Origin: Candidatus Omnitrophota bacterium
GTDB lineage: Bacteria > Omnitrophota > Gorgyraeia > JAFGHF01
NCBI GenBank assembly: GCA_042571705.1
Contig: JBHPFV010000005.1
Location: forward strand, 4,628-68,627
Direction: 5' to 3'
Length of the DNA stretch: 64,000 nucleotides
Numbering within the stretch: the first letter of the stretch is position 1; every line of letters starts with the position of its first letter. A program made the translations under genes and the position numbers. Shown here one piece after another: positions 28,441 to 47,733 of the stretch. The notes beneath the pieces were generated by a model. The model was not told the DNA's origin. It was given only the letters and a program-made list of their open reading frames with translations, and did no database searches.

Positions 28441-28529
28441 TAGAGGTAGGATAGGCTCTGGGGGCACCCTTACGATTTGATTTTGGCGAAGAATAGTTTA
28501 AACTGAAAACGGAGAAAGGGGAAGCAATA

Positions 28530-29321: not shown

Positions 29322-29343
29322 TACAATAAATAAGCTATTTCTA

Positions 29344-29997: not shown

Positions 29998-30007
29998 ATA
30001 TTAGCAA

Positions 30008-30072
30008 TAAATAAGCCGTTGTAACTAGCATCATTACAACGGCTTTTTTATTTTGGTGCCGAAGCGGGGATT
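30008..30072. repeat. Copy 1 of the terminator hairpin + 19-nt tRNA-Leu 3'-end repeat (distal island boundary)
   Basis: aagccgttgtaa..ttacaacggctt hairpin, then tggtgccgaagcggggatt (30054-30072). This is identical to nt 46984-47002 of the intact tRNA gene. Confidence 0.85.
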
Positions 30073-30132
30073 AATCAGTTAATCGTCCTAATTTTGCAAA
30101 GAAGAAATAATGTAAGATTTTAAAACAAGTGC

Positions 30133-30161
30133 TTGACATGTTTCGTTACATATGATATACT
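30133..30161 (+). promoter_or_regulatory. Sigma-70 promoter TTGACA-17-TATACT for the TA operon
   Basis: ttgaca at 30133-30138, 17-nt spacer, tatact at 30156-30161. Confidence 0.6.
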
Positions 30162-30193
30162 TGTAATAGTCTAAGAAGTGGGGGAGGAGTAAA

Positions 30194-30991
30194 ATGGCAG
30201 ATACATTTTATAAAAAATTAGGTATGCGGATTAAAGCCTTAAGAGAGCAAGCTGGATACTCACAGGAGAAATTAGCTGATTTGCTTAAAATAAGCAGGGT
30301 TTCTCTATCGCAGATTGAAACTGGAGATAGAAGGTTAAGCGCCGAGGAAGTAGCGGAGCTATCAAAAGTATTCAACGTTACTTCAGATATTTTACTCGAC
30401 TTAAAAAAGGATATAAAAGTGGTTTTAGAAAAAACAAAGAAACCTACAAAAGTAAGGCCAGAGGTTCGGATTAACGTGCCGCAAAAGAACTTAGATAAGT
30501 TTAAAGAAGTTTTACTCTATATTCTTAATCAAGTGGGCTCAAAGCCAAATATTGGTGAGTCTGTGCTATATAAGCTACTTTATTTTATCGATTTTAATTA
30601 TTACGAGAAATATGAAGAACAGCTTATCGGCGCCACCTACATAAAAAATAATTATGGCCCCACTCCTAAAGAATTTATAAAGATAATTGATGAAATGGAA
30701 GCCCAAAAGGAAATAATTAAAGTGGAGGATAAGTATTTTCAGTATCCCCAGCGAAAGTATCTTCCTTTAGAGACGCCTGATTTATCTAAATTGAAAGCTA
30801 GCGAATTAAAAATGATTGATGATGTATTGGAAAAGCTTTCTGATATGAATGCTGCGCGGATAAGTGAATACTCGCATAACGACGTTCCTTGGCTTACCAC
30901 AGAAGACGGTGAAATAATAGATTACGAATCTGTTTTTTACCGCACCCCGGAATACTCCTTGAGGTCTTACAGTGAAAAAGATATTCAATGA
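30194..30991 (+). CDS. XRE-HTH + DUF4065 (Panacea/SocA-like) antitoxin-type protein
   Basis: N-terminal HTH_XRE (IKALREQAGYSQEKLADLLKISRVSLSQIETG). The C-terminal part (VLYKLLYFIDFNYYEKYEEQLIGATYIKNNYGPTP) is typical of DUF4065. Confidence 0.75.
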   Translation: MADTFYKKLGMRIKALREQAGYSQEKLADLLKISRVSLSQIETGDRRLSAEEVAELSKVFNVTSDILLDLKKDIKVVLEKTKKPTKVRPEVRINVPQKNLDKFKEVLLYILNQVGSKPNIGESVLYKLLYFIDFNYYEKYEEQLIGATYIKNNYGPTPKEFIKIIDEMEAQKEIIKVEDKYFQYPQRKYLPLETPDLSKLKASELKMIDDVLEKLSDMNAARISEYSHNDVPWLTTEDGEIIDYESVFYRTPEYSLRSYSEKDIQ

Positions 30992-31346
30992 AATCAAGGC
31001 CCTCCCGGAATTCGACAAGGATTTAAAAAAACTTAAAAAGTTTAAAACGCTTAAAGAAGATTTAGATATATTTACCGAGAAACAACTTCAGCTTTTTCAT
31101 AAATTAGGCATAGATAATAAGGGAATAGTCCAAATATCAAATCTTGGTATTGAATGTCCAAATATTTATAAAGCAAGAAAGTTTGCTTGTAGATCTTTGA
31201 AAGGCAGAGGATCCGCAAGTGGCATTAGGGTAATTTACGCCTATTTTGAAGATAAAGATCGCGTAGAATTTATTGAGATATACTATAAAGGCGATAAGGA
31301 GAGCGAAGATAGAGGAAGAATTTTAAGGCATTACGGCAAAAAATAG
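30972..31346 (+). CDS. RelE/ParE-superfamily toxin-like protein
   Basis: 124 aa. The GTG start overlaps the upstream gene by 20 nt. GIRVIYAYFEDKDRVEFIEIYYKGDKE matches the conserved RelE/HigB-type beta-sheet core. Confidence 0.6.
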   Translation: MKKIFNEIKALPEFDKDLKKLKKFKTLKEDLDIFTEKQLQLFHKLGIDNKGIVQISNLGIECPNIYKARKFACRSLKGRGSASGIRVIYAYFEDKDRVEFIEIYYKGDKESEDRGRILRHYGKK

Positions 31347-31387
31347 TTTTAAGATATAAGGCGATTGAGATAGTATATCCGTAGGAA

Positions 31388-31450
31388 AAATAGCCGTTGT
31401 AAGTATCATCACTACAACGGCTTGTTATTTCTGGTGCCGAAGCGGGGATT
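31388..31450. repeat. Copy 2 of the hairpin + 19-nt tRNA-Leu 3'-end repeat
   Basis: agccgttgtaagtatcatcactacaacggct, then tggtgccgaagcggggatt (31432-31450). Confidence 0.85.
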
Positions 31451-31506
31451 TGATTGTGGGTGAGTTTTGTTTGGTTGTGTGAAGCTGTGGCTGGGTGTGG
31501 ATATTT

Positions 31507-31537
31507 GCGTAACTTTATAATTTATATAAGGTTACGC
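31507..31537. repeat. Island-arm inverted repeat (gcgtaac..gttacgc)
   Basis: The hairpin sits 75 nt after the tRNA-fragment start. The same element with the same spacing is at 41244-41274. Confidence 0.6.
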
Positions 31538-31591
31538 CTTTTTGTTTGCCTTTATCTGTTTGGAAAGCTTTAGCCTATTTAGGCATGAATG

Positions 31592-31612
31592 TGGCACAAA
31601 TCTGGCACAGAC
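31592..31612. repeat. 21-nt direct repeat TGGCACAAATCTGGCACAGAC (copy 1 of 4)
   Basis: Exact or near-exact copies at 41101, 41329 and 46915, all in the same orientation. Confidence 0.8.
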
Positions 31613-31655
31613 CCTTTCCCATCACAAGGTTTCAACGTAAAAAAGCAAAAAATCC

Positions 31656-31684
31656 TTGACATAGCTTTTATTAAGTGCTATTAT
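31656..31684 (+). promoter_or_regulatory. Sigma-70 promoter TTGACA-17-TATTAT upstream of nikR
   Basis: ttgaca at 31656-31661, tattat at 31679-31684. Preceded by an A-tract. Confidence 0.55.
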
Positions 31685-31713
31685 TTTAAGAAACGTAATA
31701 CCAAGGATAATAT

Positions 31714-32130
31714 ATGTCAGAGTTATTTAGATTTGGAATTTCATTAGAAAAAGAGCTACTAGAAAAATTTGATCATCTTATTAGAGAAGAGAATTATACT
31801 AACCGCTCTGAGGCTTTTCGAGATTTAATCCGTCAGGAGCTAGTAAAGAAGCAGTGGCAGGAAGGTAAAGAGATTGCCGGAGCCATTACTATTATTTACA
31901 ATCACCACAAAAGAGAACTTCTTAACAAAATTATTGATCTCCAACACGACTTTCAAAAAGCGATCATATCCACACAACATATCCATTTGGATCATAATAA
32001 TTGCTTGGAGATAATCGCGATCAAGGGTAACCCAAAAGAAACACAAAAGTTATTCAATACCTTAAAATCTATCAAAGGCATAAAACACGCTGCTCTATCT
32101 ATGACAACGACCGGCAGTAAAATACCTTAA
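31714..32130 (+). CDS. nikR: Nickel-responsive regulator NikR (ribbon-helix-helix + metal-binding ACT-like domain)
   Basis: RFGISLEKELLEKFD...NRSEAFRDLIR RHH domain. C-terminal IIYNHH...HIHLDHNNCLE His/Cys metal-site motifs. Confidence 0.85.
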   Translation: MSELFRFGISLEKELLEKFDHLIREENYTNRSEAFRDLIRQELVKKQWQEGKEIAGAITIIYNHHKRELLNKIIDLQHDFQKAIISTQHIHLDHNNCLEIIAIKGNPKETQKLFNTLKSIKGIKHAALSMTTTGSKIP

Positions 32131-32224
32131 TCTATGGGGTATTATTTTTTTTCTTTGCAAGTAGCACGATTTCGATAATAGTAATATTAACATATTTACA
32201 GCTTCGCAAAGAAGGAAATGAATC

Positions 32225-32980
32225 GTGGGGAAAATTTTAAATTTAATCTTATTTTTGATAATTGCTTTTCCAATAATTGTACCTTCTATTGCCTATGCAG
32301 CAAGGCCTTTATCTACTGATGATGCAGGTACAGTAGAAGAAAGACACATTGAAATTGAAAGTGGCTTTGAATATGTTAATCAAACAGACGAAGAGAATAG
32401 TTTGAATTTAGTGTTAAAATACGGCATTATCAAAAATTTGGATTTGGGCACAGAGCTACCCTATAAATTTATCAATCTTAGTGGAAGCGCTGATGTTGAC
32501 GGCATAGGAGATATAAAAGTTACTACTAAATATCGTTTTTTAGAAGAGACAAAAAAAATTCCTGCTTTGGCTTTTAGTTTTAGCGTTAAAACCAAAACAG
32601 GCAGCGAAGCCAAGGGCATCGGTTCTGGGGAGGTGGATTATATTTTAAACGGGATAATTACTAAAACAATAGATAAGTTCATTAACCATTTAAATTTAGG
32701 TTATACGTTTGTCGGTGAACCTGAGGAGGGAAACCCTGACGATATTTTTTCTTATAGTTTAGCCTTAGAATATCCCATGTATGAGAGGTTAAGTATAGTA
32801 GGAGAGATTGCTGGTGAGACTACCTTTGAGGGAGATTTTGATGACAATCCCTGCAGTGGATTACTGGGGCTAAATTATGCCCTCAACGAAATGACTTCCT
32901 TCGATTTTGGAATGGGATTTAAGATATCAGACGCTAGCCCTGATTACAAAATTATTACAGGTTTGACATTTGGCTTTTAA
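32225..32980 (+). CDS. Outer-membrane beta-barrel transporter-like protein (MetA-pathway/'transporter' OMP family-like)
   Basis: Signal peptide (AYAARPLSTDDAGT..), alternating strands, and a terminal F. GTG start. The family is recalled from memory. Confidence 0.5.
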   Translation: MGKILNLILFLIIAFPIIVPSIAYAARPLSTDDAGTVEERHIEIESGFEYVNQTDEENSLNLVLKYGIIKNLDLGTELPYKFINLSGSADVDGIGDIKVTTKYRFLEETKKIPALAFSFSVKTKTGSEAKGIGSGEVDYILNGIITKTIDKFINHLNLGYTFVGEPEEGNPDDIFSYSLALEYPMYERLSIVGEIAGETTFEGDFDDNPCSGLLGLNYALNEMTSFDFGMGFKISDASPDYKIITGLTFGF

Positions 32981-33005
32981 ATAAAAGGAGAGGAGGGAAG
33001 GTAAA

Positions 33006-33302
33006 ATGTGTTATACTGCACCATTAATAGGAGCTATAGTTACAACTGTGGCTTGGAAAAAGACAAAAGATGTAAAAGTCTGGTGGCTAAACTTAATGTT
33101 CTACGGAGGTGCATTATTTGGAGTAATAGACCATTTTTGGAATGGCGAGTTATTCCTTATTTCCGAAAACATAATTAGCGATTTGCTATTGGGTGTAACT
33201 ATTACAGCTATTATCCTCGTATCATGGGGAGCAGCAGTTATATGGAGCAAGGTAAACCCTACTTTAGCTAATTATGTGAACCTTAAGAGCCAATCCATCT
33301 AA
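33006..33302 (+). CDS. Small integral membrane protein, unknown function
   Basis: 98 aa with three hydrophobic segments. Preceded by GGAGAGGAGGGAAGG. Confidence 0.5.
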   Translation: MCYTAPLIGAIVTTVAWKKTKDVKVWWLNLMFYGGALFGVIDHFWNGELFLISENIISDLLLGVTITAIILVSWGAAVIWSKVNPTLANYVNLKSQSI

Positions 33303-33325
33303 CCCTTTTTGTTTGAAAAAAAGAC

Positions 33326-33354
33326 TTGACAGGGGCTAAGCTATGGAGTATACT
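33326..33354 (+). promoter_or_regulatory. Sigma-70 promoter TTGACA-17-TATACT upstream of the Fur-family gene
   Basis: ttgaca at 33326-33331, tatact at 33349-33354. Preceded by an A-tract. Confidence 0.6.
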
Positions 33355-33389
33355 TGATAATGGAAACCAGTATCAATAGGAGATGAGTG

Positions 33390-33863
33390 ATGCCTCAACG
33401 AGATGGAACAGGACCACCTTGGTGGCACGGAAGGTTTAGGGGATGCGGCTATAGAATGACTGTGCCTAGGCAGGCCATATTAGATGTATTAAGCAAAACA
33501 TCTAAGCATCTGAGTGCTGAGGATGCATATATGGTTGTCCATAAGAACTATCCCAATGTAGGGCTTACGACCGTCTATCGTACTTTAGAATTATTAGTTC
33601 AGGTAGGCCTGGTTTTTAAGTTCGATTTCGGTGATGGGAGAGCACGATATGAGCTGTCAGAAGGGCCAAAAGGAGTTAGGCATCACCACCATTTAGTCTG
33701 TACAGATTGTGGCAGGGTTATTGATTATACAGATTTTATAGATGAAGAAGTAGAATTACTTAATCAAACGGAAAAAGGGCTTTCTAAAAAGTTTAATTTC
33801 AAAATCACTAATCATCTTATCCAATTTTATGGATTATGTGATAAATGCAAAAGTGAGAAATGA
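33390..33863 (+). CDS. fur: Fur-family metalloregulator with an N-terminal MPxxDGTGP (DUF5320-like) extension
   Basis: Winged-helix region (RQAILDVL...TVYRTLELL), HHHHLVCTDCG and CDKC Zn/metal sites. The N-terminus is MPQRDGTGPPWWHGRFRGCG. An AGGAGA RBS lies 8 nt before ATG 33390. Confidence 0.8.
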   Translation: MPQRDGTGPPWWHGRFRGCGYRMTVPRQAILDVLSKTSKHLSAEDAYMVVHKNYPNVGLTTVYRTLELLVQVGLVFKFDFGDGRARYELSEGPKGVRHHHHLVCTDCGRVIDYTDFIDEEVELLNQTEKGLSKKFNFKITNHLIQFYGLCDKCKSEK

Positions 33864-33889
33864 GATTTATATTTTTTTTCACTGTAAAT

Positions 33890-33908
33890 GAAAATGATTA
33901 TCATTAAC
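33890..33908. promoter_or_regulatory. Fur box upstream of the DUF5320 gene
   Basis: gaaaatgattatcattaac matches the classical GATAATGATAATCATTATC consensus at 16 of 19 positions. The core palindrome is aatgat-t-atcatt. Confidence 0.65.
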
Positions 33909-33930
33909 AAACAGGAAGGAGGTGTTTAAG

Positions 33931-34233
33931 ATGCCAGGTTTTGACGGAACCGGTCCCATGGGAATGGGTCCTATAACAGGCGGAGGAAGAGGTTTTTGTG
34001 CCGTGCCTATGAAAGATTGGCGGAGGCCCTTTGGTGGTAGATTCTTTGGTAGAGGCAGAGGCCGAGGCTGGAGACGTGGTTGGTTTGGTTATGGAAGCCC
34101 TAATGCTTCAGAGTTTACGCCGCAACAAGAAGCGGAGATGCTCAAAAAAGAAGCTAAGGCTATGCAGGATGAGATAAACTCCATACACATACGTATAAGT
34201 GAATTGGAATCCGCAGAGAAAAAGACTAAATAA
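33931..34233 (+). CDS. DUF5320-like protein (Gly-rich N-terminus, coiled-coil C-terminus)
   Basis: MPGFDGTGPMGMGPITGGGRGFC, RG-rich middle, C-terminal coiled coil (EAEMLKKEAKAMQDEINSIHIRISELE). A GGAGG RBS precedes ATG 33931. Confidence 0.7.
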   Translation: MPGFDGTGPMGMGPITGGGRGFCAVPMKDWRRPFGGRFFGRGRGRGWRRGWFGYGSPNASEFTPQQEAEMLKKEAKAMQDEINSIHIRISELESAEKKTK

Positions 34234-34262
34234 AAAGCACTTAATAACAAAGGAGTCTATTT

Positions 34263-34661
34263 ATGAGAGTGGCGATATCCACGGATGGGGATTTTGTATC
34301 TGCTCATTTTGGCAGATGTCCGTCATTTACTATTGTCGATATTGAGAATGATAAAGTTACGAAGAGAGAAGTCATAGACAATCCTGGGCATCAACCAGGA
34401 TTTATACCGCAATTCTTGCATGAAAGAGATGTCAATTGTATTGTTGCCGGTGGCATGGGAATGAGGGCAACAGGACTTTTCAACGAACTTAGGATTCAGG
34501 CAGTTGTAGGAGTAAGCGGAAATATTGATGAAGTAATAGAGAAACTTCAAAAAGGAACTTTAGAAGGTGGCGAGAGTCTATGTAAACCTGGTGCAGGAAA
34601 AGGATATGGTTTAGATAAGACTGAATGCGATCATCCTAAACAGGATAAATGTGATCATTGA
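34263..34661 (+). CDS. NifX/NifB-C-terminal-like (dinitrogenase FeMo-cofactor-binding fold) protein
   Basis: MRVAISTDG..VSAHFGRCPSFTIVDIE...VNCIVAGGMG is the typical motif series of this family. Confidence 0.8.
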   Translation: MRVAISTDGDFVSAHFGRCPSFTIVDIENDKVTKREVIDNPGHQPGFIPQFLHERDVNCIVAGGMGMRATGLFNELRIQAVVGVSGNIDEVIEKLQKGTLEGGESLCKPGAGKGYGLDKTECDHPKQDKCDH

Positions 34662-34679
34662 TTGAGAGGTGGTGAGAAC

Positions 34680-35054
34680 ATGAAGATTTGCATAACTTCA
34701 CAAGGAGACAATTTGGATTCACAGGTTGACCCACGCTTTGGAAGATGCCAGTATTTTATCATTACAGATACCCAGACTTCTGGATTAGAGGTAATTCAAA
34801 ATCCGAATATTGATTCCATGGGGGGCGCAGGTATTCAATCAGGGCAACTTGTGGCAACTAAAGGAGCCAAAGTAGTTTTAACTGGCAACGTAGGTCCAAA
34901 CGCCTTTCAGACTTTACAAGCAGCAGGGATCGATGTAATTACCGGAGTATCCGGTATCGTTAAAGATGTAACAAAGAAGTACAAAAAAGGCGAATTTAAG
35001 CCAACCCAAGGCCCAAGTGTCAATTCTAAATTTGGTATGCCAACGAAGAAATAG
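34680..35054 (+). CDS. NifX/NifB-C-terminal-like protein (second copy)
   Basis: MKICITSQGDNLDSQVDPRFGRCQYFIITD...VVLTGNVGPNAFQ. A GAGGTGGTGAG RBS precedes ATG 34680. Confidence 0.8.
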   Translation: MKICITSQGDNLDSQVDPRFGRCQYFIITDTQTSGLEVIQNPNIDSMGGAGIQSGQLVATKGAKVVLTGNVGPNAFQTLQAAGIDVITGVSGIVKDVTKKYKKGEFKPTQGPSVNSKFGMPTKK

Positions 35055-35066
35055 GGAGAACTTAAA

Positions 35067-35240
35067 ATGGCAGTTAGGGTGAATAAAATTAAATGCGATG
35101 GTTGTGGGGCATGCGCTGATGTTTGTCCTGCAAATGCTATTGAAATTAAACAAAGCAAGGTTGTTGTAAGTGATGAGTGCGTGGAATGTGGTGCATGTGT
35201 AGATGAATGTCCAAACGAAGCGATATCGCTTCCAAAATAG
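35067..35240 (+). CDS. 2x[4Fe-4S] ferredoxin (57 aa; absent from the supplied ORF track)
   Basis: It translates to MAVRVNKIKCDGCGACADVCPANAIEIKQSKVVVSDECVECGACVDECPNEAISLPK*, with two CxxCxxCxxxCP motifs. Preceded by a GGGAGAA RBS. Confidence 0.85.
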   Translation: MAVRVNKIKCDGCGACADVCPANAIEIKQSKVVVSDECVECGACVDECPNEAISLPK

Positions 35241-35252
35241 AAGGTGAGTGAA

Positions 35253-35468
35253 ATGCCGAGAGGAGATGGAACAGGACAAGGCCCGGGGACAGGTAAAGGT
35301 ATGGGAAGAGGTGGCGGTAGAGGCAGAATGGGTGGAAAGCGTCCAGGGTCAGGTCCTGGCGGAAGTTGCATCTGTCCAAGTTGTGGTTCGAAGATTCCTC
35401 ATCAGGCTGGGGCGCCGTGTGCTTCTTCAAGTTGCCCCAAATGCGGAAATCAGATGGTGCGGGAGTAA
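35253..35468 (+). CDS. DUF5320-like Gly/Arg-rich protein with C-terminal zinc ribbon
   Basis: MPRGDGTGQGPGTGKGMGRGGGRGR N-terminus. CICPSCG...CPKCG C-terminus. Confidence 0.65.
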   Translation: MPRGDGTGQGPGTGKGMGRGGGRGRMGGKRPGSGPGGSCICPSCGSKIPHQAGAPCASSSCPKCGNQMVRE

Positions 35469-35471
35469 TTA

Positions 35472-36083
35472 TTGAAAGAGAAACTATTAGAAAATCATAA
35501 AAGATATTTAGATAGAATAAATTTCTACAAGAAGTTTAGCTATGATGTTGAAGAAGAGAGAAAATTCATCTTAGAAAAGTCATACCCTCTCTATGGAGAC
35601 ATAGTAGAAGTAGGAACGGGCAAGGGGTATTTCACTGTTGAACTTGCTAAAGAAGGATATAACTTTACCAGTATAGACATTTCAGATGATGAACAGGAAT
35701 TCGCCAGATTTAATATAAAATATTTCGGCTTTGAAAAGCTTGTAGATTTTAGAATAGAGAACGCAGAGCACCTAAGTTTTGACAATTCCAGCTTCGATAT
35801 AATATTTTCTATCAACACAATTCACCATCTTACCAATCCGGTTAAAGTAATAGAGGAGCTGATAAGGATAGCTACCCTTGAAGGAAAGATAATTTTAAGT
35901 GATTTTACTGAAGACGGCTTAAAAATTATAGATAAAGTTCATGCAGCCGAAGGAAGAGTACACAAAGCGGGGCGGACAAACTTATCAGAGGTAGGTAATT
36001 ATTTAGAACGGAGAGGATTTAGTATCCAAAAGCACAAAAGCAGATTTCAAAAAATTCTTATCGCTTATCGCCAAATTATATAA
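35472..36083 (+). CDS. Class I SAM-dependent methyltransferase
   Basis: Motif I IVEVGTGKGYFTVELA, acidic loop SIDISD, and FDIIFSINTIHH. TTG start. Confidence 0.75.
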   Translation: MKEKLLENHKRYLDRINFYKKFSYDVEEERKFILEKSYPLYGDIVEVGTGKGYFTVELAKEGYNFTSIDISDDEQEFARFNIKYFGFEKLVDFRIENAEHLSFDNSSFDIIFSINTIHHLTNPVKVIEELIRIATLEGKIILSDFTEDGLKIIDKVHAAEGRVHKAGRTNLSEVGNYLERRGFSIQKHKSRFQKILIAYRQII

Positions 36084-36088
36084 TAGTT

Positions 36089-36934
36089 ATGATTATTTCA
36101 ATTGCCAGTGGAAAAGGTGGAACAGGAAAGACTACAATAGCCACCAGTCTTGCTCTCTCCATAAATAGTGGTGTTCAATTTTTAGACTGTGATGTTGAAG
36201 AACCCAACGCCCATATTTTCTTAAGACCAAAGATTCAGCAAAGTAAGGCGGTATCTGTTCCCGTACCTAAAATAGATGAATCTAAGTGCACTTTCTGCGG
36301 CAGGTGTGCGGAAGTTTGCGCCTATAATGCCCTTGCCGTGCTCAAGAATAAGGTGCTAACTTTTCCACATTTGTGCCACGGCTGTGGAGGTTGCAATCTT
36401 CTTTGTCCCCAAAAAGCAATCACGGAAGTTAATAAGGAAATAGGTGTTGTAGAAATTGGCAATTCAGCTAACTTGCAATTCATACATGGAAGATTAAATA
36501 TTGGCGAAGTAATGTCACCGCCTTTAATCAGAGCAGTTAAAGAGTACATTAATCCAACCCGGAGCGTAATTGTTGATGCTCCTCCGGGCACTTCTTGTCC
36601 TGTTATAGAGACAGTTAAAGGCAGTGATTTTTGTATGCTGGTTACCGAACCAACTCCTTTTGGTTTAAACGATTTGATATTAGCGGTTGAAGTTTTGAGA
36701 AAATTGAATATTTCCTTTGGAGTTATAGTAAATAGGTCTGGTATCGGAGACAATAGCCTGGGTCATTACTGCAAGAAAGAGAATATTCCTGTACTAATGC
36801 GGATCCCTTTTAGAAAAGAAATAGCTTTTGCCTATTCAAAAGGAATTCCTATTGTGAGTGAATTCCCAAAGTATAAGCAGGAATTTGTAAAGTTATATAA
36901 AGAAATCACGGAAAGAATAAGATGGAGCAAATAG
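36089..36934 (+). CDS. MinD/ParA-type P-loop ATPase with inserted 2x[4Fe-4S] ferredoxin domain
   Basis: Deviant Walker A SGKGGTGKTT. CTFCGRCAEVCAY and CHGCGGCNLLCP clusters. Confidence 0.85.
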   Translation: MIISIASGKGGTGKTTIATSLALSINSGVQFLDCDVEEPNAHIFLRPKIQQSKAVSVPVPKIDESKCTFCGRCAEVCAYNALAVLKNKVLTFPHLCHGCGGCNLLCPQKAITEVNKEIGVVEIGNSANLQFIHGRLNIGEVMSPPLIRAVKEYINPTRSVIVDAPPGTSCPVIETVKGSDFCMLVTEPTPFGLNDLILAVEVLRKLNISFGVIVNRSGIGDNSLGHYCKKENIPVLMRIPFRKEIAFAYSKGIPIVSEFPKYKQEFVKLYKEITERIRWSK

Positions 36935-38129: not shown

Positions 38130-38142
38130 AAGGTTATGAAGG

Positions 38143-38853: not shown

Positions 38854-38913
38854 TTTGGCACCTTCTTAAGAGCTGGTACAACTGATGGGGGCCGGTCACT
38901 AGAAAGGAGAAAA

Positions 38914-40071: not shown

Positions 40072-40192
40072 CAAAGCGTTGTAATTGGACTTATTTGTTC
40101 TTATCTATGGGATTTACCTTCCAGCTCAACAATCTTAGGATTATATAGCCCGTTTTTATATTACCAACAGGAATAAAGACTATATTAACAAA

Positions 40193-40942
40193 ATGGTGAA
40201 AAAGTTTATTTATTCAGGAATAATTGTAGGCCTGGCAATCATTTTGAGCTCTTGCGCTAGAGCGCCAATTAGACCTATAGCATATCCACCCAAAGAGGCA
40301 CCTATTTTAAGGAAAGATGTCATTCATACAGTAGCCCCAGGAGAGACGGTTTGGCGTATAGCTAAGATGTATGATATTGAAACCAAAGATATCATGCGGG
40401 CGAACACTCTAAAAAAGGCAAAAGAGCTAAAAATGGGCCAACGTCTTTTTATACCAGATGCTGCGCCACTCAAAGCAGTCATTTCCCTTTACCGCTCTAA
40501 GAAATGGAAATACATCATTATTCACCACAGCGCAACCGATGAAGGATGTGCGTTGCATTTCCATTTTGCGCATCATTCAAGGGGATTTAAAAAAGGATTG
40601 GGTTACCACTTTGTTATTGATAATGGAACGCGGGGAAAAGAGGATGGACATATTGAAGTTTCACCTCGTTGGTTAAAACAACTGGATGGCGCGCACTGCA
40701 AGGCTTCAGGAATGAATAACAAGGGAATAGGCATTTGTCTTGTGGGCAATTTCAATAAAGAACAAGTTCCTAAAAAACAGATGGATTCATTACTATATTT
40801 GGTGAATTGCCTGAGAAAACACTATAGAGTTCCTCTAAAAAACATAATGGGACATGACCAGGTTTTCGGGGCAAAAACAGAATGTCCGGGTAAGAATTTC
40901 CCTTTAGATAAATTTAAAGAACAACTTGGAGCATCAAATTGA
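40193..40942 (+). CDS. Lipoprotein: LysM + N-acetylmuramoyl-L-alanine amidase (Amidase_2/PGRP type)
   Basis: Lipobox ILSSC. LysM (HTVAPGETVWRIAKMYDIETKDIMRANTL). Amidase_2 motifs (IIIHHSAT, GYHFVIDNG, GHDQV..ECPG). Confidence 0.8.
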   Translation: MVKKFIYSGIIVGLAIILSSCARAPIRPIAYPPKEAPILRKDVIHTVAPGETVWRIAKMYDIETKDIMRANTLKKAKELKMGQRLFIPDAAPLKAVISLYRSKKWKYIIIHHSATDEGCALHFHFAHHSRGFKKGLGYHFVIDNGTRGKEDGHIEVSPRWLKQLDGAHCKASGMNNKGIGICLVGNFNKEQVPKKQMDSLLYLVNCLRKHYRVPLKNIMGHDQVFGAKTECPGKNFPLDKFKEQLGASN

Positions 40943-40980
40943 GGGAATACAAATGGGTAAAAAAATAATACCCTAACAGA

Positions 40981-41066
40981 TTAAGGTATTTTACTGCCTG
41001 TCGTTGTCATAGATAGAGCAGCGTGTTTTATGCCTTTGATGGATTTTAAGATATTCAATAGCTTTT
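40981..41066 (-). pseudogene. Inverted 3' fragment of a nikR gene
   Basis: The reverse complement of 40958-41066 is near-identical to nikR 32045-32152. It encodes ..LLNILKSIKGIKHAALSMTTTGSKIP*, including the stop and downstream hairpin. Confidence 0.8.
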
Positions 41067-41100
41067 TTGAAAAGTGCCGTTGAAAAATTAGATTTTTAAC

Positions 41101-41186
41101 TGGCACAAATCCGGCACAGACAAAAAAGAGTCGTTGTAACCCCAATAGTTACAACGACACATATTTTCTGGTGCCGAAGCGGGGAT
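41101..41186. repeat. 21-nt DR (copy 2) + terminator-like hairpin + 18-nt tRNA-Leu 3'-end copy (boundary between islets B and A)
   Basis: tggcacaaatccggcacagac, then gtcgttgtaac..gttacaacgac, then tggtgccgaagcggggat (41169-41186). Confidence 0.85.
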
Positions 41187-41243
41187 CTGATTAAAGGGGA
41201 GTTTCAGTTGTTTGTATTGACTTACTTAAAATTGCATATGGTT

Positions 41244-41274
41244 GTGTAACTGCATTATAAATATAAAGTTACGC
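41244..41274. repeat. Island-arm inverted repeat (gtgtaac..gttacgc), second copy
   Basis: Lies 75 nt after the tRNA-fragment start, as in islet B. Confidence 0.6.
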
Positions 41275-41328
41275 CCTTTCATCTGGTTTTGTCTAGCCCT
41301 ATTAAATCAGGCTATTTTAACATAGATA

Positions 41329-41349
41329 TGGCACAAATTTGACACAAGA
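41329..41349. repeat. 21-nt direct repeat, degenerate copy 3 (tggcacaaatttgacacaaga)
   Basis: Lies 160 nt after the tRNA-fragment start. Copy 1 sits exactly as far from its own tRNA fragment. Confidence 0.65.
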
Positions 41350-41594
41350 AGGGCAGACATTTCCCAATTTGTAACATATTTAATTACAAATAGTTACATA
41401 ATTTGTTAATAGTTACAAAAGTTGCATTTTAGGCCTTGCTTTTTTCCATTTATATGGCATACTTGTACTAAGATAGACGCGAAAAAAGGCAAATGCCGGG
41501 TAACCGGCAGACTCCGCCACAAGGAAGGCGGATTATCTTGTATTGGATTAGACCCTGCGCCTAGAGGAATTGCGCAGGTCTATTCTTCTGAATT

Positions 41595-41639
41595 AGAGGC
41601 GGCCAGGATAAGCAAAGCTACAGGCGCCTCTTTTTTATT
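41595..41639 (+). terminator. Intrinsic-terminator-like hairpin + T-run inside the leader of the giant ORF (possible attenuator)
   Basis: agaggcggcc..aggcgcctc followed by ttttttatt, 44 nt before ATG 41683. Preceded by several stable hairpins. Confidence 0.4.
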
Positions 41640-41682
41640 GCGCAGCTGAGCTACCGATGTCTTATAACCGGTAGCCATTTTT

Positions 41683-44600
41683 ATGCGCAAGAGAAGTCCC
41701 AAAAGAAGACAAGATGCCTCCTGGATCTGGCTATGCAGCCTGCTAGCCATATTCTTTATCTTTATTATAGTCAGCTATGGCAGGGGTAGCCTAAGAGCAA
41801 ACGGTTCTTACCAAAAGACTGTCTCTCAAGTAGCCGAAAGCATTAAACTCACCCCCTACACTCCACCTACCCTAAAAAGCCTAATCGTCCATCCTGAATC
41901 CACTGATAACTACTTTGACTTTATCCTGGACACCCAGGAAGAACCTGTTGAAGATGAGGATAGCTTAGAGCCTATAGCCAAGGAACTAATCGACTACTTC
42001 TTCTTAGGTATCACCCTGCCAAGTGATGATCTCTGGGTTAACCTTAACTCAGTCCGGCAAAATGCCATCACCAGCCCCAGACTTGCCTTAACAGACATAG
42101 GAAAGGTACTTTTAGAGGCAGATTTAACCCTGAAGAAGGACTGCTGTAGGTTTACTGATCCTAGAACCAAGACCGGTAAAGAATACTGGGGTAAACTACA
42201 AGCCAGGCTTAATGAAGCAAACCTAAGTACCTCTCAACTACCCATAGGCAATAGGTTCTGGATCATACCAGAGGAAGCTGTTGTAGAGGAAAACTCTGAT
42301 AATCATACAGTCACCATAGTCAAATCCAAGCTAAAAGTTTGCCTACAACAAGAATACCTTGAACTACAAAACAACCAAGTAACCCTCTTATCTGACCAAA
42401 ATCAACACCCCCAAGCAAGATTAGCCCAGGATATTGCCGACTTTACCATGAAAGAGGTAATACTACCAGCTATTCAAGAAGAGGTAAACTATGGCAAAGC
42501 TTATGCCAAATTAAGACAAGTTTATAACTCCCTGATCTTAGCTGAATACTACAAGCAGAAATACCACCATGGCCAGGGACTATACCCCAAACTCATCAAC
42601 AGAGCCCATATCCAAGGCTTAGAGTCAAATGAACCTTGGAACACCCAAGACTTCTATCAGGCCTATGTCAAATCCGCTCAAGAAGGCGAATATAAGCTTA
42701 CTCAACAAGAATATGACCCCTACCTTGCTTCAATGGTCCAGAAATACTACTTCTATGGGGGTGTGTTGATTAGCAAACTAAGGGATGTTTTGCAGAGAAG
42801 GGTAAAAGATTCAAGTTCTGCAATGCAAAAACAAGCTGAGGCCTTAAGGATAGAAATTGATAAAGATGCGGAAGGACGCTACTGGTATGTTCGAAACTAC
42901 ACCCAACCGCAAAGCCCATGGAAGACCATTATAAAGATTTTCAGAGGAAAGAAGCCAAAAGATCAGGTAGAATTTGCAGGCAGGCCTATCGAGTCCTCCG
43001 AAAAGTATAGGCTAAAGCAAATATTAGAAAAATTTGAAAGTGAGTCAAATGTTGTACCATCTTATGATGAATCGAGTTATGTCTCTATTTTGTCGGATGA
43101 GCTATGTCATAATGTAGGCTGGGATAGTTTTATCGCTTCTCATTTAGATAATAATTTTTTAATACGTGAATCCGCTTTCAAGAACGATAACCTGTTAACA
43201 ATCACCTTATTATTGCCTAATCAATTTAGGTGGGAACATTCTCTAGATTCATTACGTGCACTTAATGAAAAACTTATGACATTTGGGCTTTATGTTGATA
43301 GTAAGGGAACCCTATATGAGATAGAAGATAAGGGGTTGGTGGATACGGATCAGGGAGCAGTAGAAGTCCTTTATGTACATCTTATTGATAAATATCCCGA
43401 TGGGGAAAAGAGAAGCGGAGGATTTAGCTCCCACAGTGATAATCGAATAGTTATATGTAGAGATGCAATAAAAAGACAGGTTACAGAGATCAAGCAGGTT
43501 TTAAATAGCATGACCTCCGTAGATATAAGTAAAGGTGCAAAATTAGTAGGTATCGCACTATTGAAAAAGGGACTCGGATCTTCTGATTTCAAAGAATGCT
43601 GCAGATTGGTTGAACAAGGCATACTTCTTCATGAGGTTAAGCATGAAGTTTGCAGGCGCATGTTAGGAGGGCAGGCAAAAGTTAAATGGCCAGTTTTGGA
43701 CGAAGAATTTGCAGAACTGTACACAATTAGAAATGCAGAAGAACCTTTTCATATTCTTGCCAACCTTGTTGGCAAAATTGCAGTACAGCAAGAACTTACG
43801 GAAGAAGAAGCTAGAGAACGACAAGCAGCAGTTAATGTTTTGATCCGGCTGTCAAAGCTTCGAAATATGGATGTTTTTCCTTGGCTATCTTTTATGGTAG
43901 AAAGAGGGACTAAAGAAGACTTAAATGATGCAGCTAGAGTAGCCTATGTAGACTCGGAAGAAGTATGGATAGAACAATATGCCAAACTTGGCCATCAATT
44001 CGGCGGGCCCAGTGGAGGGCTCCACGCTGGGGAAGTAGAGCCGGCGATTCGAAGAATTCTAAAAGCAGATCCAGGATTAGCTGATAAATCTGCGGAAGAA
44101 CTCCTTGAGCATCTTAAACAACACCATGAAGGAATATTTGATGCTGTGGATAAAGCAAAGAGGATAGAGCAAGTTCAAAACATATTAGATATAAAGAGAA
44201 ATTCGTTGCGGCAATTTCAATATTTGACAGAGAAAGACGAAAATTGGCCGTTAATATTGACATTTTTTCAAGATCTTGGTGTGCAGCAAAATTATAACAT
44301 TGCCCATGTCGGTGTACATGCTCAAAGTAATATGGCAATTGCTGCTGCCTATTTAGAAGCACATTATACAGGATATGAGTTAGATCTCGAGAACTTTAGT
44401 AGGAACCAAGAGTATATAAGCCAATTGCTCAATACTCCTCAGGTAGCTAAAGAATTGCCTGGGACGATCAAGTATCTTCAGGGAGAGTTCTCTTCAGGGG
44501 AAAAGTCTCAATCTAAATCTTTTGGCCAGCGAAGCCAGGATGTTGTTTTAATAATAAGTGGCGCTTTAAGTGATCCTTATTATCCTGTATCTGACCCGGA

Positions 44601-46821
44601 GGAAGTTTTTATTGAGTCATTGCGTGTAATTAAGTCTGGCGGAAGGCTTGCTGTAGGAACTTATGGATGGTTATCAGAATTAAAGACCGCAGAGGAAGTG
44701 ATGCGTAGGGTATTGGCCAGGCCTGAATGGAAAGGTGTCCAATTAACGGAAGAATGGGCAGTAGATTATAAAGAAAGTTTACATTTCAGAGCAAGAATAT
44801 ATAAAGTTATCTTCCCGGAAGACACCTTTTTAAGACAGAAGAACCCAGCCGGTGTTGACTTTAGAGGAATAGAATCAAAAGGAGAAAGCAAGGCGGACTT
44901 CGGCCAGGATAGGTCTGCCGGTATAGGTGGGCGCTCCGAACCAAGTGAAGTAAAATCTAAACAAGCAATAACTGCTGTTATCAAGACCGATCAGGGAGAA
45001 ATAGATGTTACTCGAGCAGCTATGGAGGGTATTCAAAATTTTGCTCGAGCGCAATTTATAACTTTGGCCAGGGATATTACTTCTCTGTGTAAAATTACAA
45101 AGAAAGAGCATGAAGATGGAAAAACATTATATGCAATCGTGATTTCACATCCCCTAGATGTAAGCATATACACAGAACTTATTATTGATGATTCAGATTA
45201 CAGATTTTTTAAAGGTCGCAGGATTATGCGCGGAGCAGAGTACCCTATACCCAGAGAAGAAATAGAAGAGGAAGCAGTAGATCATAATACAAGAAAAATA
45301 AACATAGTTGCCCCAGGAGTGCTGGAAGCTATACAGACAGAAATCACATTCTCCGTTGCCGAAGGTGTTCCTGTATTGCTGGTTACAGAACAGAAAAGAA
45401 GGATAAACAGGGAACTCCACGGCGCAGCAATTATAAAAAAGGATATCGATAGCGGCAGAAATAGATTAGAAAAAATTACCCCCAAAACACAGGGGCAAAT
45501 CTTTAGCGTCAGCGCGTTTGCAAAGGAAGGTCAATCTCCCGAAGAGGCAAAAGAAAAAAGCGATAACTTTCTTAAGTCATTCATGATGGTGTTATCTGAA
45601 AAACATATACTTTCCAAAGCTTATTTATCATTAGAAGATGGAGAGGTACAACTTGTTGTACAAACAAGTCTGCCTAAAATATTTAAACTTTCACACTTCT
45701 CAGTTTATCATAAATTGTCGGAACTGCTAACAGACGAGGCAGTTGTTGATTTGTTCGGTCGTCAATATTTAAATAAGCGAGAGGAGATCACGGATGACAA
45801 TATAACAGGGAAGCTTAAACAGGTGCAAATAATTGATATAAAACGTGTTGGCTATTGGGGCACTTTTGCGACCCCATATTACACTGGGTATTCTAGAGAA
45901 TCGATATTTAGGGAAGACAGTAGAGCGTATACAAAAGATGACCAAGATTTTGTGGCTTTTCTGCATATGCATCCAAAAGGTTCCGGGCCTGAATATTTTT
46001 ATAAACTACGACCCTTATGGAATGATGAGGTCATTGGAGATTTTATCAAAAATAATTATGCTGATATTTCATCTATCCCCTCGTCTGGTGACCTCAGGGG
46101 ATGGTATGAGGAAATCGATGAGCAAATGATGGCTACTCCTACAGGCGGATTATTCTTCCCAATGAGGGGGATTGTTTACCATAGATTAGTCGTGCATGGT
46201 AGCGGAGATGATTTGGACGCTGACGCTGAAGATAAAGCATCCTTTATGTTTTATCAGATTCCAGAAACAACCAAGAAACGGGAGGAATGGTTAACACTCA
46301 TAAAAAGATATGACCAATTACTAGGCCGCAAAGATGATATAGGTAGTTACAGACAGACTATTCAAAGAGTTATTGAATTGTGCAGGAAATATCAAGTAAA
46401 ACCTGAAGTTCTGAAACAGGATAAATTGCTCGATAATCAATTCGAAGGCGATATAGACGAGATATCTCCTGAAGTATTTGCTAGGGTATGGGACCAAGGG
46501 ATAGGAATCAATATTAAGGAAATCCTACAAAAATGCGATATCCGTTGGCCAGCAGGAGAAAGATTATCTGCAGGACAAGAAGGTCTTAGTGAAGTAGTTA
46601 TGGATGCAGATGAGAGTGGCGGATATATAATTTGCAATGGCAGAAGGTCACATTTTGAGAAAGTGCCTGGCCAGTCTTATTATGTTATTTCTGGCGCAGG
46701 CTCGATTTCAGAAATACAGCTTTTGGAAAGTCTTGAAAAATTTAAACAAGATAATGAGACAGATAATACTGATTTCGGAGGTGTCGACTTTAGAAAAATA
46801 GAGATTAAAAAGGAAGAATGA
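41683..46821 (+). CDS. Giant (1712 aa) N-terminally membrane-anchored multidomain protein of unknown function
   Basis: Uninterrupted 5.1-kb ORF. TM anchor (WIWLCSLLAIFFIFIIVSY). HEVKH at aa 650-654. Methyltransferase-fold-like segment at aa ~870-1000. HMH...SSGD segment at aa 1428-1470. No family that I can name. Confidence 0.85.
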   Translation: MRKRSPKRRQDASWIWLCSLLAIFFIFIIVSYGRGSLRANGSYQKTVSQVAESIKLTPYTPPTLKSLIVHPESTDNYFDFILDTQEEPVEDEDSLEPIAKELIDYFFLGITLPSDDLWVNLNSVRQNAITSPRLALTDIGKVLLEADLTLKKDCCRFTDPRTKTGKEYWGKLQARLNEANLSTSQLPIGNRFWIIPEEAVVEENSDNHTVTIVKSKLKVCLQQEYLELQNNQVTLLSDQNQHPQARLAQDIADFTMKEVILPAIQEEVNYGKAYAKLRQVYNSLILAEYYKQKYHHGQGLYPKLINRAHIQGLESNEPWNTQDFYQAYVKSAQEGEYKLTQQEYDPYLASMVQKYYFYGGVLISKLRDVLQRRVKDSSSAMQKQAEALRIEIDKDAEGRYWYVRNYTQPQSPWKTIIKIFRGKKPKDQVEFAGRPIESSEKYRLKQILEKFESESNVVPSYDESSYVSILSDELCHNVGWDSFIASHLDNNFLIRESAFKNDNLLTITLLLPNQFRWEHSLDSLRALNEKLMTFGLYVDSKGTLYEIEDKGLVDTDQGAVEVLYVHLIDKYPDGEKRSGGFSSHSDNRIVICRDAIKRQVTEIKQVLNSMTSVDISKGAKLVGIALLKKGLGSSDFKECCRLVEQGILLHEVKHEVCRRMLGGQAKVKWPVLDEEFAELYTIRNAEEPFHILANLVGKIAVQQELTEEEARERQAAVNVLIRLSKLRNMDVFPWLSFMVERGTKEDLNDAARVAYVDSEEVWIEQYAKLGHQFGGPSGGLHAGEVEPAIRRILKADPGLADKSAEELLEHLKQHHEGIFDAVDKAKRIEQVQNILDIKRNSLRQFQYLTEKDENWPLILTFFQDLGVQQNYNIAHVGVHAQSNMAIAAAYLEAHYTGYELDLENFSRNQEYISQLLNTPQVAKELPGTIKYLQGEFSSGEKSQSKSFGQRSQDVVLIISGALSDPYYPVSDPEEVFIESLRVIKSGGRLAVGTYGWLSELKTAEEVMRRVLARPEWKGVQLTEEWAVDYKESLHFRARIYKVIFPEDTFLRQKNPAGVDFRGIESKGESKADFGQDRSAGIGGRSEPSEVKSKQAITAVIKTDQGEIDVTRAAMEGIQNFARAQFITLARDITSLCKITKKEHEDGKTLYAIVISHPLDVSIYTELIIDDSDYRFFKGRRIMRGAEYPIPREEIEEEAVDHNTRKINIVAPGVLEAIQTEITFSVAEGVPVLLVTEQKRRINRELHGAAIIKKDIDSGRNRLEKITPKTQGQIFSVSAFAKEGQSPEEAKEKSDNFLKSFMMVLSEKHILSKAYLSLEDGEVQLVVQTSLPKIFKLSHFSVYHKLSELLTDEAVVDLFGRQYLNKREEITDDNITGKLKQVQIIDIKRVGYWGTFATPYYTGYSRESIFREDSRAYTKDDQDFVAFLHMHPKGSGPEYFYKLRPLWNDEVIGDFIKNNYADISSIPSSGDLRGWYEEIDEQMMATPTGGLFFPMRGIVYHRLVVHGSGDDLDADAEDKASFMFYQIPETTKKREEWLTLIKRYDQLLGRKDDIGSYRQTIQRVIELCRKYQVKPEVLKQDKLLDNQFEGDIDEISPEVFARVWDQGIGINIKEILQKCDIRWPAGERLSAGQEGLSEVVMDADESGGYIICNGRRSHFEKVPGQSYYVISGAGSISEIQLLESLEKFKQDNETDNTDFGGVDFRKIEIKKEE

Positions 46822-46914
46822 GGCGGGCCCAAACGCCCAAGGCCCTGATTGCCTTCAGAGGCCTCGCGTCTATCTTGATGGGTCCGCTTCGTCTCCTTTT
46901 AGTTGTTTTCTAAC

Positions 46915-46935
46915 TGGCACAAATCTGGCACAGAC
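46915..46935. repeat. 21-nt direct repeat TGGCACAAATCTGGCACAGAC (copy 4)
   Basis: Identical to copy 1. Lies 69 nt from the tRNA 3' end. Confidence 0.8.
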
Positions 46936-46943
46936 ATAAAATA

Positions 46944-46974
46944 AGCCGTTGTAAGTATCATCATTACAACGGCT
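46944..46974 (-). terminator. Rho-independent terminator of tRNA-Leu
   Basis: On the minus strand: aagccgttgtaa-loop-ttacaacggctt followed by a T-rich run, directly after the tRNA CCA end. Confidence 0.7.
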
Positions 46975-46983
46975 TTGTTATTT

Positions 46984-47070
46984 TGGTGCCGAAGCGGGGA
47001 TTCGAACCCCGACGAGATTGCTCTCACAACGCCCTGAACGTTGCGTGTCTGCCAGTTTCACCACTTCGGC
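46984..47070 (-). tRNA. tRNA-Leu(CAG), type II (long variable arm), CCA encoded
   Basis: The minus strand reads GCCGAAGTGGTGAAACTGGCAGACACGCAACGTTCAGGGCGTTGTGAGAGCAATCTCGTCGGGGTTCGAATCCCCGCTTCGGCACCA. Acceptor GCCGAAG/CTTCGGC. Anticodon stem CAACG/CGTTG with loop TTCAGGG. T-arm CGGGG-TTCGAAT-CCCCG. Confidence 0.9.
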
Positions 47071-47694: not shown

Positions 47695-47704
47695 GGGTAT
47701 AATT

Positions 47705-47733
47705 AGTATATAGGAAAATTGCTAGAGTGTCAA
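47705..47733 (-). promoter_or_regulatory. Sigma-70 promoter TTGACA-17-TATACT for the LAGLIDADG gene
   Basis: On the minus strand: ttgaca (47733-47728), 17-nt spacer, tatact (47710-47705). Confidence 0.6.

Follow-up and report, generated by a model that had tools for sequence, protein, structure and literature searches.

A stack of four recombinase-free islets at the comEC/tRNA-Leu(CAG) locus of an Omnitrophota genome

Introduction

Omnitrophota are uncultured, mostly tiny-celled bacteria. The DNA discussed here, called the window, is a 64-kb stretch of a metagenome-assembled Candidatus Omnitrophota genome. Between the conserved gene comEC/rec2 and an intact tRNA-Leu(CAG) gene it holds an array of four islets of 3.4, 1.4, 9.7 and 5.8 kb, starting at 26593. 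The islets consist of cargo plus attachment (att) ends only, and all their genes are co-directional. We consider it probable that they arrived by serial site-specific integration at the T-loop of the tRNA gene, carried out by a recombinase encoded elsewhere. A limited literature search turned up no description of tRNA-linked islands from Omnitrophota.

The closest described systems are found in other bacteria. In Dehalococcoides, islands are inserted at the T-loop of ssrA; 16 of them have a module with a serine recombinase (DsiB) and 15 do not, and it has been suggested that the latter are cis-mobilizable (McMurdie et al. 2011, PMC3146451). Cis-mobilizable elements (CIMEs) are flanked by attL and attR, are devoid of integration and transfer genes and occur in tandem at the 3' end of a streptococcal tRNA gene (PMC5704250). 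They are defined as decayed integrative and conjugative elements (ICEs) or integrative and mobilizable elements (IMEs) whose mobilisation in cis is due to a neighbour bearing an integrase (PMC5704250). The tycheposon islands of Prochlorococcus are targeted to tRNA genes. Later integrations push the older ones inward, partial tRNAs lie between the elements, degenerate remnants are present and the cargo reflects the niche (10.1101/2020.12.28.424599). A recombinase, of the tyrosine or rarely the large serine type, is encoded by tycheposons, which usually have a replication module as well (10.1101/2020.12.28.424599).

The array described here is similar to the Dehalococcoides ssrA islands (PMC3146451) in that it is a tandem arrangement with direct repeats of a tRNA-like gene's 3' end, in a small-genome bacterium of the uncultivable type. 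However, the target is tRNA-Leu and not ssrA, no recombinase is encoded in the array or, as far as they are readable, in two occupied relatives, and the ends have arm-type repeats and a terminator apparently borne by the element. The islets also fit the descriptive definition of a CIME, being att-flanked and without integration and transfer genes, but none of the four encodes a recombinase, so there is no integrase-bearing neighbour, and they look like minimal cargo-plus-att units and not like decayed backbones. Successive tRNA-targeted integrations with partial tRNAs separating the elements are shared with the tycheposon islands, whereas a recombinase and a replication module are absent here. 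Integron arrays likewise have co-oriented cargo units without a recombinase of their own, hairpin-forming unit ends and stacking at one chromosomal site. However, no intI-like gene lies beside this site, where the neighbour is a LAGLIDADG endonuclease gene; the hairpin has a perfect stem and a T-run, unlike the imperfect palindromes with extrahelical bases of attC; the islets have their own promoters; and insertion duplicates the tRNA 3' end. Three features of tRNA-targeting islands are found at the locus, namely 3'-end insertion with a direct repeat, empty sites with variable occupancy, and deviant base composition, while an element-encoded integrase near one end is lacking. What is peculiar to this array is that it is recombinase-free throughout, that its units are minimal combinations of cargo and module, that the terminator is borne by the element and that the overlap between comEC and the tRNA is left intact.

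The empty site and the array

The locus was compared with that on the related contigs L082, L083 (complete genome CP070837), L087, L088, L089 and L090. Among GTDB representatives, an SmpB-based scan yielded distant relatives only, none above 65% identity, and since the closest ComEC orthologues are only 57-61% identical there is no close relative to hand. The backbone order LeuRS, peptidase, ComEA .. ComEC, tRNA-Leu, SmpB, tmRNA .. AmiC, MurI, QueD is common to the window and L083. However, the distance from comEC to the tRNA is 20.4 kb in the window and 0.9 kb in L083. Coordinates of the features are collected in Table 1.

Empty sites are found in four relatives, L087, L088, L089 and L090, whose comEC is 58-61% identical to that of the window. 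In these genomes comEC and tRNA-Leu(CAG) are convergent and overlap by about 21 nt, with the TGA stop codon of comEC within the T-loop; the tRNA body continues as ..GGGGATTTGA|ACCCCG.., smpB is next, and no hairpin is present. ComEC ends in ..ETM(V/I/T)(D/G)AEAG(I/T/S)*. The last seven residues are encoded antisense to the acceptor and T arms of the tRNA, and the ComEC end residues and the tRNA sequence co-vary among these genomes (GCC vs GCG). In the window comEC ends in ..ETMTDAEAGI*, but TGCAGT.. follows where the tRNA body is expected: the tRNA sequence at the end of comEC stops after TTTGA, within the T-loop. Comparison of these alleles shows that the ancestral state was a convergent comEC and tRNA with the overlap of about 21 nt. 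The copy at 26593 is thus the tRNA's original 3' end, which stayed in place as the outermost attL, and 26615-46983 (about 20.4 kb) is wholly inserted DNA, placed at the T-loop. The two contigs L002 and L034 were set aside as evidence on empty sites. They have tRNA-Leu, SmpB and tmRNA together, but their left flanks differ and they are uninformative; a 563-aa open reading frame (ORF) that L002 has left of its tRNA bears no relation to the 563-aa PLD protein of the window.

An earlier sequence-only reading of this DNA had noticed that the last 18-19 nt of the tRNA recur at 30054, 31432 and 41169, and this holds. The 19-nt 3' end, TGGTGCCGAAGCGGGGATT on the plus strand, is found at 46984 (0 mismatches), 30054 (0), 31432 (0), 41169 (1) and 26593 (2), all five copies being co-oriented and one of them belonging to the intact gene. 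No shuffled sequence matched (0/100 shuffles). Further decayed copies at up to 3 mismatches are not present in the 64-kb window, where the next-best match has 4 mismatches (at 7310, within the leucyl-tRNA synthetase gene) and the remainder 6. The copy at 26593, which matches at 17/19 positions, had been missed. The segments of 1.4, 9.7 and 5.8 kb that had been proposed still stand, but the array has four islets instead of three and begins at 26593 and not at 30008. In the intact gene, the 3' 19 nt were, we infer, supplied by the last element to integrate. At 26612, 31451, 41188 and L082 9824 the tRNA identity stops at the same point, GGGGAT(T/C)TGA|T.

A hairpin, GYCGTTGTAA-N9-YTACAACGRC, lies 10 nt ahead of each of the four good copies of the fragment and nowhere else in the window. 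It is a perfect stem of 10-12 bp with T-runs on both strands and folding energies of -15.3 to -16.5 kcal/mol, and is terminator-like. Changes in the stem are compensatory both within the window (GCC/GGC to GTC/GAC) and in L082 (TTGTAA/TTACAA to TTGCAA/TTGCAA). The presence of a hairpin ahead of each copy had been correctly described, but its identification as the tRNA's own terminator applies only to the present state of the locus. Because the empty sites have none, the hairpin came with the inserted DNA and is not the ancestral terminator. A terminator is required at the inserted site, since what lay downstream of the ancestral tRNA was coding sequence and no terminator. The 65-nt units of hairpin plus fragment share 46-61/65 nt in pairwise comparison. 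Since the four good fragments are 18-19/19 intact while the adjoining hairpin region has drifted to 46/65, we read each fragment as a former real 3' end of this tRNA gene that was displaced recently.

Occupancy of the locus varies. With the window included, three sites are occupied and four are empty, and the cargo is different in each occupied site. L083 has a single 0.9-kb islet with a Gp49/HTH toxin-antitoxin pair, bordered on one side by a comEC end that holds 13 nt of the L083 tRNA sequence and on the other by the same hairpin with the tRNA. L082 has at least two islets: an RNase_T islet, a complete junction module and then a defence-type islet with HEPN_AbiV, rve transposase, ApeA-HEPN and SIR2-like genes, which extends past the contig end. 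Two observations had been named in advance that would speak against integration, namely a fixed islet content in relatives and a dispersed family of repetitive extragenic palindromic (REP)-like repeats. Instead the relatives differ (four empty sites, one islet in L083, at least two in L082), and the tRNA fragment, hairpin and arm motif are confined to islet borders in the 64 kb and to the same locus in relatives. The region had also been thought to be AT-rich by eye. The islets have a GC content of 0.34-0.41 compared with 0.46-0.48 for the genes that keep their order in relatives. Other regions of the window that have no counterpart in relatives are equally AT-rich, for example 48914-61057 with a GC content of 0.38.

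Table 1. Positions of the islets, their ends and the flanking features in the window, unless a related contig is named.
Feature	Position	Strand	Evidence or remark
comEC/rec2, conserved left flank	24227..26614	+	Pfam Competence, DUF4131, Lactamase_B; orthologues 57-61% identical
Displaced original tRNA 3' fragment, outermost attL, encoding the ComEC end (TGATGCCGAAGCGGGAATTTGA)	26593..26614	+	17/19 match; comparison with L087-L090
Islet 0 (3.4 kb): PLD-like 26749-28440, MipA 28530-29321, DUF2490 29344-29997	26615..30007	+	Pfam
Border unit: terminator hairpin 30013-30045, tRNA 3' fragment 30054-30072	30008..30072	+	
Islet 1 (1.4 kb): HTH-Panacea (SocA-like) antitoxin 30194-30991, 124-aa ORF 30972-31346	30073..31385	+	Pfam
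Border unit: hairpin 31391-31423, tRNA 3' fragment 31432-31450	31386..31450	+	
Islet 2 left (P'-like) end: TGAT, palindrome GCGTAAC-N17-GTTACGC 31507-31537 with T-run, arm repeat TGGCACAAATCTGGCACAGAC 31592-31612	31451..31612	+	
Islet 2 cargo (9.7-kb islet), genes 31714-40942	31613..41092	+	Pfam; GC 0.387
Islet 2 right (P-like) end: arm repeat 41101-41121, hairpin 41130-41158 (GTC..GAC), fragment 41169-41187	41093..41187	+	
Islet 3 left (P'-like) end: TGAT, palindrome GTAACT..AGTTAC 41245-41273, degenerate arm repeat 41329-41349	41188..41349	+	
Islet 3 cargo (5.8-kb islet): leader of about 320 nt 41368-41682, 1712-aa ORF 41683-46821	41350..46906	+	
Islet 3 right (P-like) end: arm repeat 46915-46935, hairpin 46943-46975	46907..46983	+	
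Intact tRNA-Leu(CAG)	46984-47070	-	ARAGORN
LAGLIDADG endonuclease gene 47071-47694, neighbour outside the array	47071..47733	-	Pfam LAGLIDADG_3; phrog_4645 endonuclease, E = 1.4e-28
comEC/tRNA overlap in relatives with an empty site	L087 12563-12583; L088 5294-5315; L089 11588-11609; L090 5869-5890		
			

End modules of islets 2 and 3

Islets 2 and 3 appear from their ends to belong to one element family, in which an attP-like module of about 250 bp surrounds unrelated cargo. The module is present in islets 2 and 3 and in one islet of L082. Its order is arm repeat CTGGCACA twice, hairpin, tRNA fragment, TGAT, GTAAC palindrome and arm repeat twice. Just ahead of the hairpin the right ends have CTGGCACAAATCYGGCACAGAC at 41101 and 46915, which is CTGGCACA in tandem with a spacing of one helical turn. 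At the left ends the fragment is followed by TGAT, a GTAACT..AGTTAC palindrome with a T-run and, about 140-160 nt in, an arm repeat (31592; degenerate at 41329). The P arms of the two islets are identical at 33/37 positions and the P' ends at 108/156 (z = 9.6 against shuffles). The module of L082 can be recognised as the same one (z = 4.3 and 2.9, P arms 25-26/37), with an additional hairpin of 35 nt. In 64 kb and at up to 3 mismatches, the 21-nt arm motif was found three times, at borders only, compared with 0.01 occurrences expected. Within the window an islet has arms either at both ends or at none, in keeping with the view of an islet as one unit. The layout of an internal junction (arm, hairpin, fragment, TGAT, palindrome, arm) is as expected of an attP, or of an attR meeting the next attL. 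The last hairpin of the array (46943-46975) now serves as the terminator of the tRNA.

Search for a recombinase

It had been claimed that the region lacks recombinase, excisionase and transposase genes, and the domain searches agree: no such domain was found with Pfam or PHROGs in any ORF of 26.6-47 kb. Elsewhere in the window, the ORFs that were tested likewise gave no recombinase, excisionase or transposase domain; some 19 ORFs outside 23.4-52.8 kb were judged from their translations to be housekeeping genes and were not scanned. No intergenic gap is big enough for an integrase pseudogene, as the largest, of 740 nt, is filled by the module and a conserved leader. Outside the window, the arm motif and the junction pattern gave 0 matches in IMG/VR, the hairpin-plus-fragment pattern gave 0 matches in JGI metagenomes and BLAST searches of phages and plasmids with the module gave no match. 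The junction pattern gave 3 matches in JGI metagenomes, all of which were rejected as unrelated high-GC tRNA-Leu sites without arms. Searching the window with Rfam returned nothing above threshold apart from tmRNA.

The LAGLIDADG gene was also considered as the recombinase and was rejected, as L089 has the gene and yet an empty site. The encoded protein is a free-standing, double-motif endonuclease of 207 aa, with the motifs LLATDGNL and YIDGDGSL read in the translation. Its gene is located exactly between the ancestral promoter of tRNA-Leu (TTGACA-17-TATACT, 47733-47705) and the tRNA 5' end, so the tRNA must be co-transcribed with it. The copy in L089 (11675-12334, minus strand) is at the same position; the gene is absent from the locus in L083, L087 and L090. 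The L089 and window copies are 77% identical although comEC is only 58% identical between these genomes, which suggests that the gene has spread recently and, from its position, that it homed into the tRNA leader.

Cargo of the islets

The cargos had been described as unrelated (a toxin-antitoxin pair, a metallocluster-type operon and a giant ORF), and Pfam supports this description. Islet 0 has a GC content of 0.405, is absent between comEC and the tRNA in L083 and L087-L090, and has ends that are unrelated to those of islets 2 and 3. Islet 1, with a GC content of 0.343, has its own promoter (TTGACA-17-TATACT at 30133-30161), and a promoter scan placed another at 31656-31684 in islet 2; both are strong and sigma-70-like. 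The genes of islet 2 are, in order, NikR, an outer-membrane barrel, Fur, DUF5320, two NifX-like genes and a methyltransferase, followed by two MinD-Fer4, NifU_N, MBL-fold, Fer4_5 and amidase-LysM genes.

The Fer4_5 gene of islet 2 (38914-40071) is 75-88% identical to the best 119 of about 1,300 homologues in Omnitrophota and beyond, compared with 61% for the best ComEC match. It is unusual for a gene as conserved as this to be found within an att-flanked islet. A homologue in L093 (4733-5896) is in a housekeeping-like neighbourhood. Its context was examined as a further module site and rejected, since it has no module and a different neighbourhood.

The 1712-aa ORF of islet 3 had no match in Pfam. 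In NCBI, it and ComEC match proteins of a metagenome-assembled Candidatus Omnitrophota genome (locus tag ACFL1I_02155). It has the N-terminal domain of Omnitrophota giant proteins, which is 80% identical to that of the homologue P0003, and a 3' hairpin follows the gene. The leader and the 3' end of the gene are kept in L001, where the gene is not at tRNA-Leu. The leader and the 3' hairpin were considered as element ends, but as the L001 homologue is away from tRNA-Leu and has no module they belong to the cargo. The ORF is part of a large Omnitrophota family (183 matches), whose members share nothing but an N-terminal domain (about 410 aa, including a transmembrane segment) and a short C-terminal motif, GG[VI]DFRxIEIKK[ED]E. 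The middle parts are highly varied, with methyltransferase, HATPase, CheB, M48 and kinase domains among them. In L001 a truncated duplicate of the N-terminus (6609-7019; gene at 8198-12184) lies just upstream and is 90% identical over 224 nt. These comparisons suggest that the body of the giant protein is swapped in a modular fashion. The non-coding leader of about 320 nt (L001 6266-6608) is 84% identical in aligned columns between the two genomes and has conserved hairpins. A 75-aa ORF listed within it is probably no gene. The only Rfam signal in the leader is a sub-threshold c-di-GMP-I-GGC riboswitch (41598-41659, 22.8 bits against a gathering threshold of 59, E = 0.005), and the leader may be a new cis-regulatory RNA.

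Mechanism and alternative explanations

The reading of the array as serial site-specific integration without a resident integrase, which had been put forward from the sequence alone, is supported by the empty sites, the variable occupancy and the confinement of the repeats to the borders. If it is right, each incoming circle would carry an attP consisting of a copy of the last 19-22 nt of the tRNA with the bidirectional terminator hairpin ahead of it. A crossover in the T-loop would leave the old tRNA 3' end behind, the outermost one keeping the comEC C-terminus intact, and the same crossover would equip the tRNA with a 3' end and a terminator that are both new. The next element would enter the rebuilt tRNA and displace the earlier ones outward, so that islet 0 would be the oldest and islet 3 the newest. 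Since no recombinase is encoded in the array or was found in the window, the enzyme would have to act in trans, its gene being located at another place in the genome or on a helper element. T-loop and anticodon-loop targets in tRNA genes are reportedly typical of tyrosine integrases. Arm-type direct repeats around the core are typical of lambda-like attP sites, while large serine integrases use short attP sites without arms. Because the target is in the T-loop and arm-type direct repeats flank the core on either side, we infer that a tyrosine integrase is the more likely candidate enzyme. The array is a clear new example of a known gene-collecting route and not a new mechanism.

Several points weigh against this reading. 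Neither an integrase nor an autonomous relative of the element family was found in the scans of IMG/VR, phages, plasmids and JGI metagenomes, and the type of recombination is deduced solely from the target and the arm-like repeats. The evidence from this genome is a single contig. In L083 (13 nt) and L082 (about 11 nt) the outermost breakpoints are different. Islets 0 and 1 carry the hairpin and fragment on their right, but arms are lacking at both their ends. At least one protein of islet 2, Fer4_5, is highly conserved in Omnitrophota and atypical as accessory cargo. The arm motif, compared by eye, fits the sigma-54 -24/-12 consensus with one change (TGGCAC-N5-TGGCA compared with TGGCAC-N5-TTGCA), and the palindrome with its T-run scores as a terminator. 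Part of the conservation of the module may therefore be regulatory rather than recombinational, and each cassette would then be insulated by the module through its terminator, its second hairpin and a promoter region.

The array could also be a fossil, made of islets that came with their own integrases, lost them by deletion and are now fixed, immobile chromosomal DNA. Decay to integrase-less remnants beside tRNA genes is common (tycheposon islands, 10.1101/2020.12.28.424599; CIME formation, PMC5704250). The ragged outermost breakpoints in L082 and L083 and the phylum-wide conservation of a gene in islet 2 are consistent with such a history, which is especially plausible for islets 0 and 1, where no arms are recognisable. 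However, there are no fragments of an integrase pseudogene and no spare non-coding DNA. Both ends of islets 2 and 3 have been kept precisely, their arm repeats matching at 33/37 positions; the same module persists in a genome with a comEC of only 61% identity; and the tRNA fragments are intact at 18-19/19 positions. For the array as a whole the fossil is a possible account but not the probable one. Homologous exchange is quite unlikely. It would start from one founding integration, followed by RecA-dependent swaps between border modules of 65-250 bp with DNA taken up by natural transformation, and would need no site-specific recombinase today. The locus adjoins comEC, comEA is present too, the border units share 46-61/65 nt, and direct repeats would permit loop-out deletion. 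Nevertheless, stretches of exact identity between the units are short, roughly 20-30 nt, and such exchange explains neither the fixed T-loop endpoint beside a conserved TGAT nor the arm repeats that flank the core on both sides.

A metagenome-assembled genome can contain contigs that were mis-joined at repeats, and the tandem order might then be a chimera of single-islet alleles from co-existing strains. This is very improbable because the repeat units differ at 4-19/65 positions and have distinct flanks, so that ordinary k-mers resolve them, the junction at 41093-41349 has a P end followed by a P' end, which is what tandem integration predicts, and an independent contig, L082, has the same kind of junction. 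The LAGLIDADG endonuclease, whose free-standing gene abuts the tRNA 5' end and shows the signs of recent spread given above, might cut endonuclease-free alleles, with adjacent islets being co-converted during repair from the donor. Homing, however, makes no direct repeats of a tRNA fragment, and in the small sample at hand L089 has the endonuclease and an empty site while L083 has an islet and no endonuclease; spread in this manner is hardly credible.

Serial integration by an enzyme acting in trans is thus retained as the favoured reading. An extension of it, which we regard as rather doubtful, is that the locus is a tRNA-anchored, integron-like platform, where cargo-only cassettes of Omnitrophota with a self-insulating att module of about 250 bp would be captured serially by a recombinase encoded elsewhere. 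On this extension, the module would have arm repeats at its two ends and, between them, a bidirectional terminator, a replacement 3' end for the tRNA and another hairpin, a design that would preserve comEC and the tRNA at every step.

Neighbouring regions

The 12 kb at 48914-61057, between tmRNA and amiC, contain genes for MarR, a fusion of MFS, acyltransferase and AMP-ligase, radical SAM proteins and a spermidine-synthase-like membrane protein. This region is absent from L088 and L090, where amiC directly follows tmRNA. Between comEA and comEC (10339-24016), there are genes for HTH-cupin, PilZ, two ketosynthases, FabG, a FabZ-like protein, nitroreductase and amine oxidase, followed by a sensor kinase and response regulators. 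The ketosynthase cluster, from HTH-cupin to amine oxidase, is absent at that position in L083 and is located downstream of comEC in L092 (2921-12315). The flanks of comEC are thus rearrangement-prone on both sides.

Two further sets of repeats were observed in the window. Three consecutive secreted proteins with a C-terminal dockerin type I domain are encoded at 22-6260 (one with a beta-helix, one with Laminin_G_3 and one without another domain match). The 3' ends of their genes form a 221-nt repeat family at 1838, 3775 and 6055, with copies 66-83% identical to the reference copy. A 134-nt direct repeat, 84% identical, is found at 58303-58436 and 61494-61627, upstream of two unrelated genes. 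It contains the promoter-like sequence TTGCTTTTTGGGCTAATTT.TGGTATAAAT, which is found upstream of L001 genes too.

Significance

The comEC, tRNA-Leu(CAG), smpB locus is a precisely defined, phylum-specific hotspot of gene gain, for which empty and occupied alleles are known and the att module is recognisable. It shows a neat way of entering a pair of overlapping genes, in which the terminus of comEC is still formed by the old tRNA end and the element would bring a new tRNA end and terminator. The hotspot could be used to catalogue accessory genes of Omnitrophota, such as toxin-antitoxin pairs, defence genes, metal and FeS operons and giant proteins, and in the hunt for the missing recombinase. 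If the islets are indeed mobilised in trans as minimal cassettes, the idea of cassette capture would extend beyond integrons.

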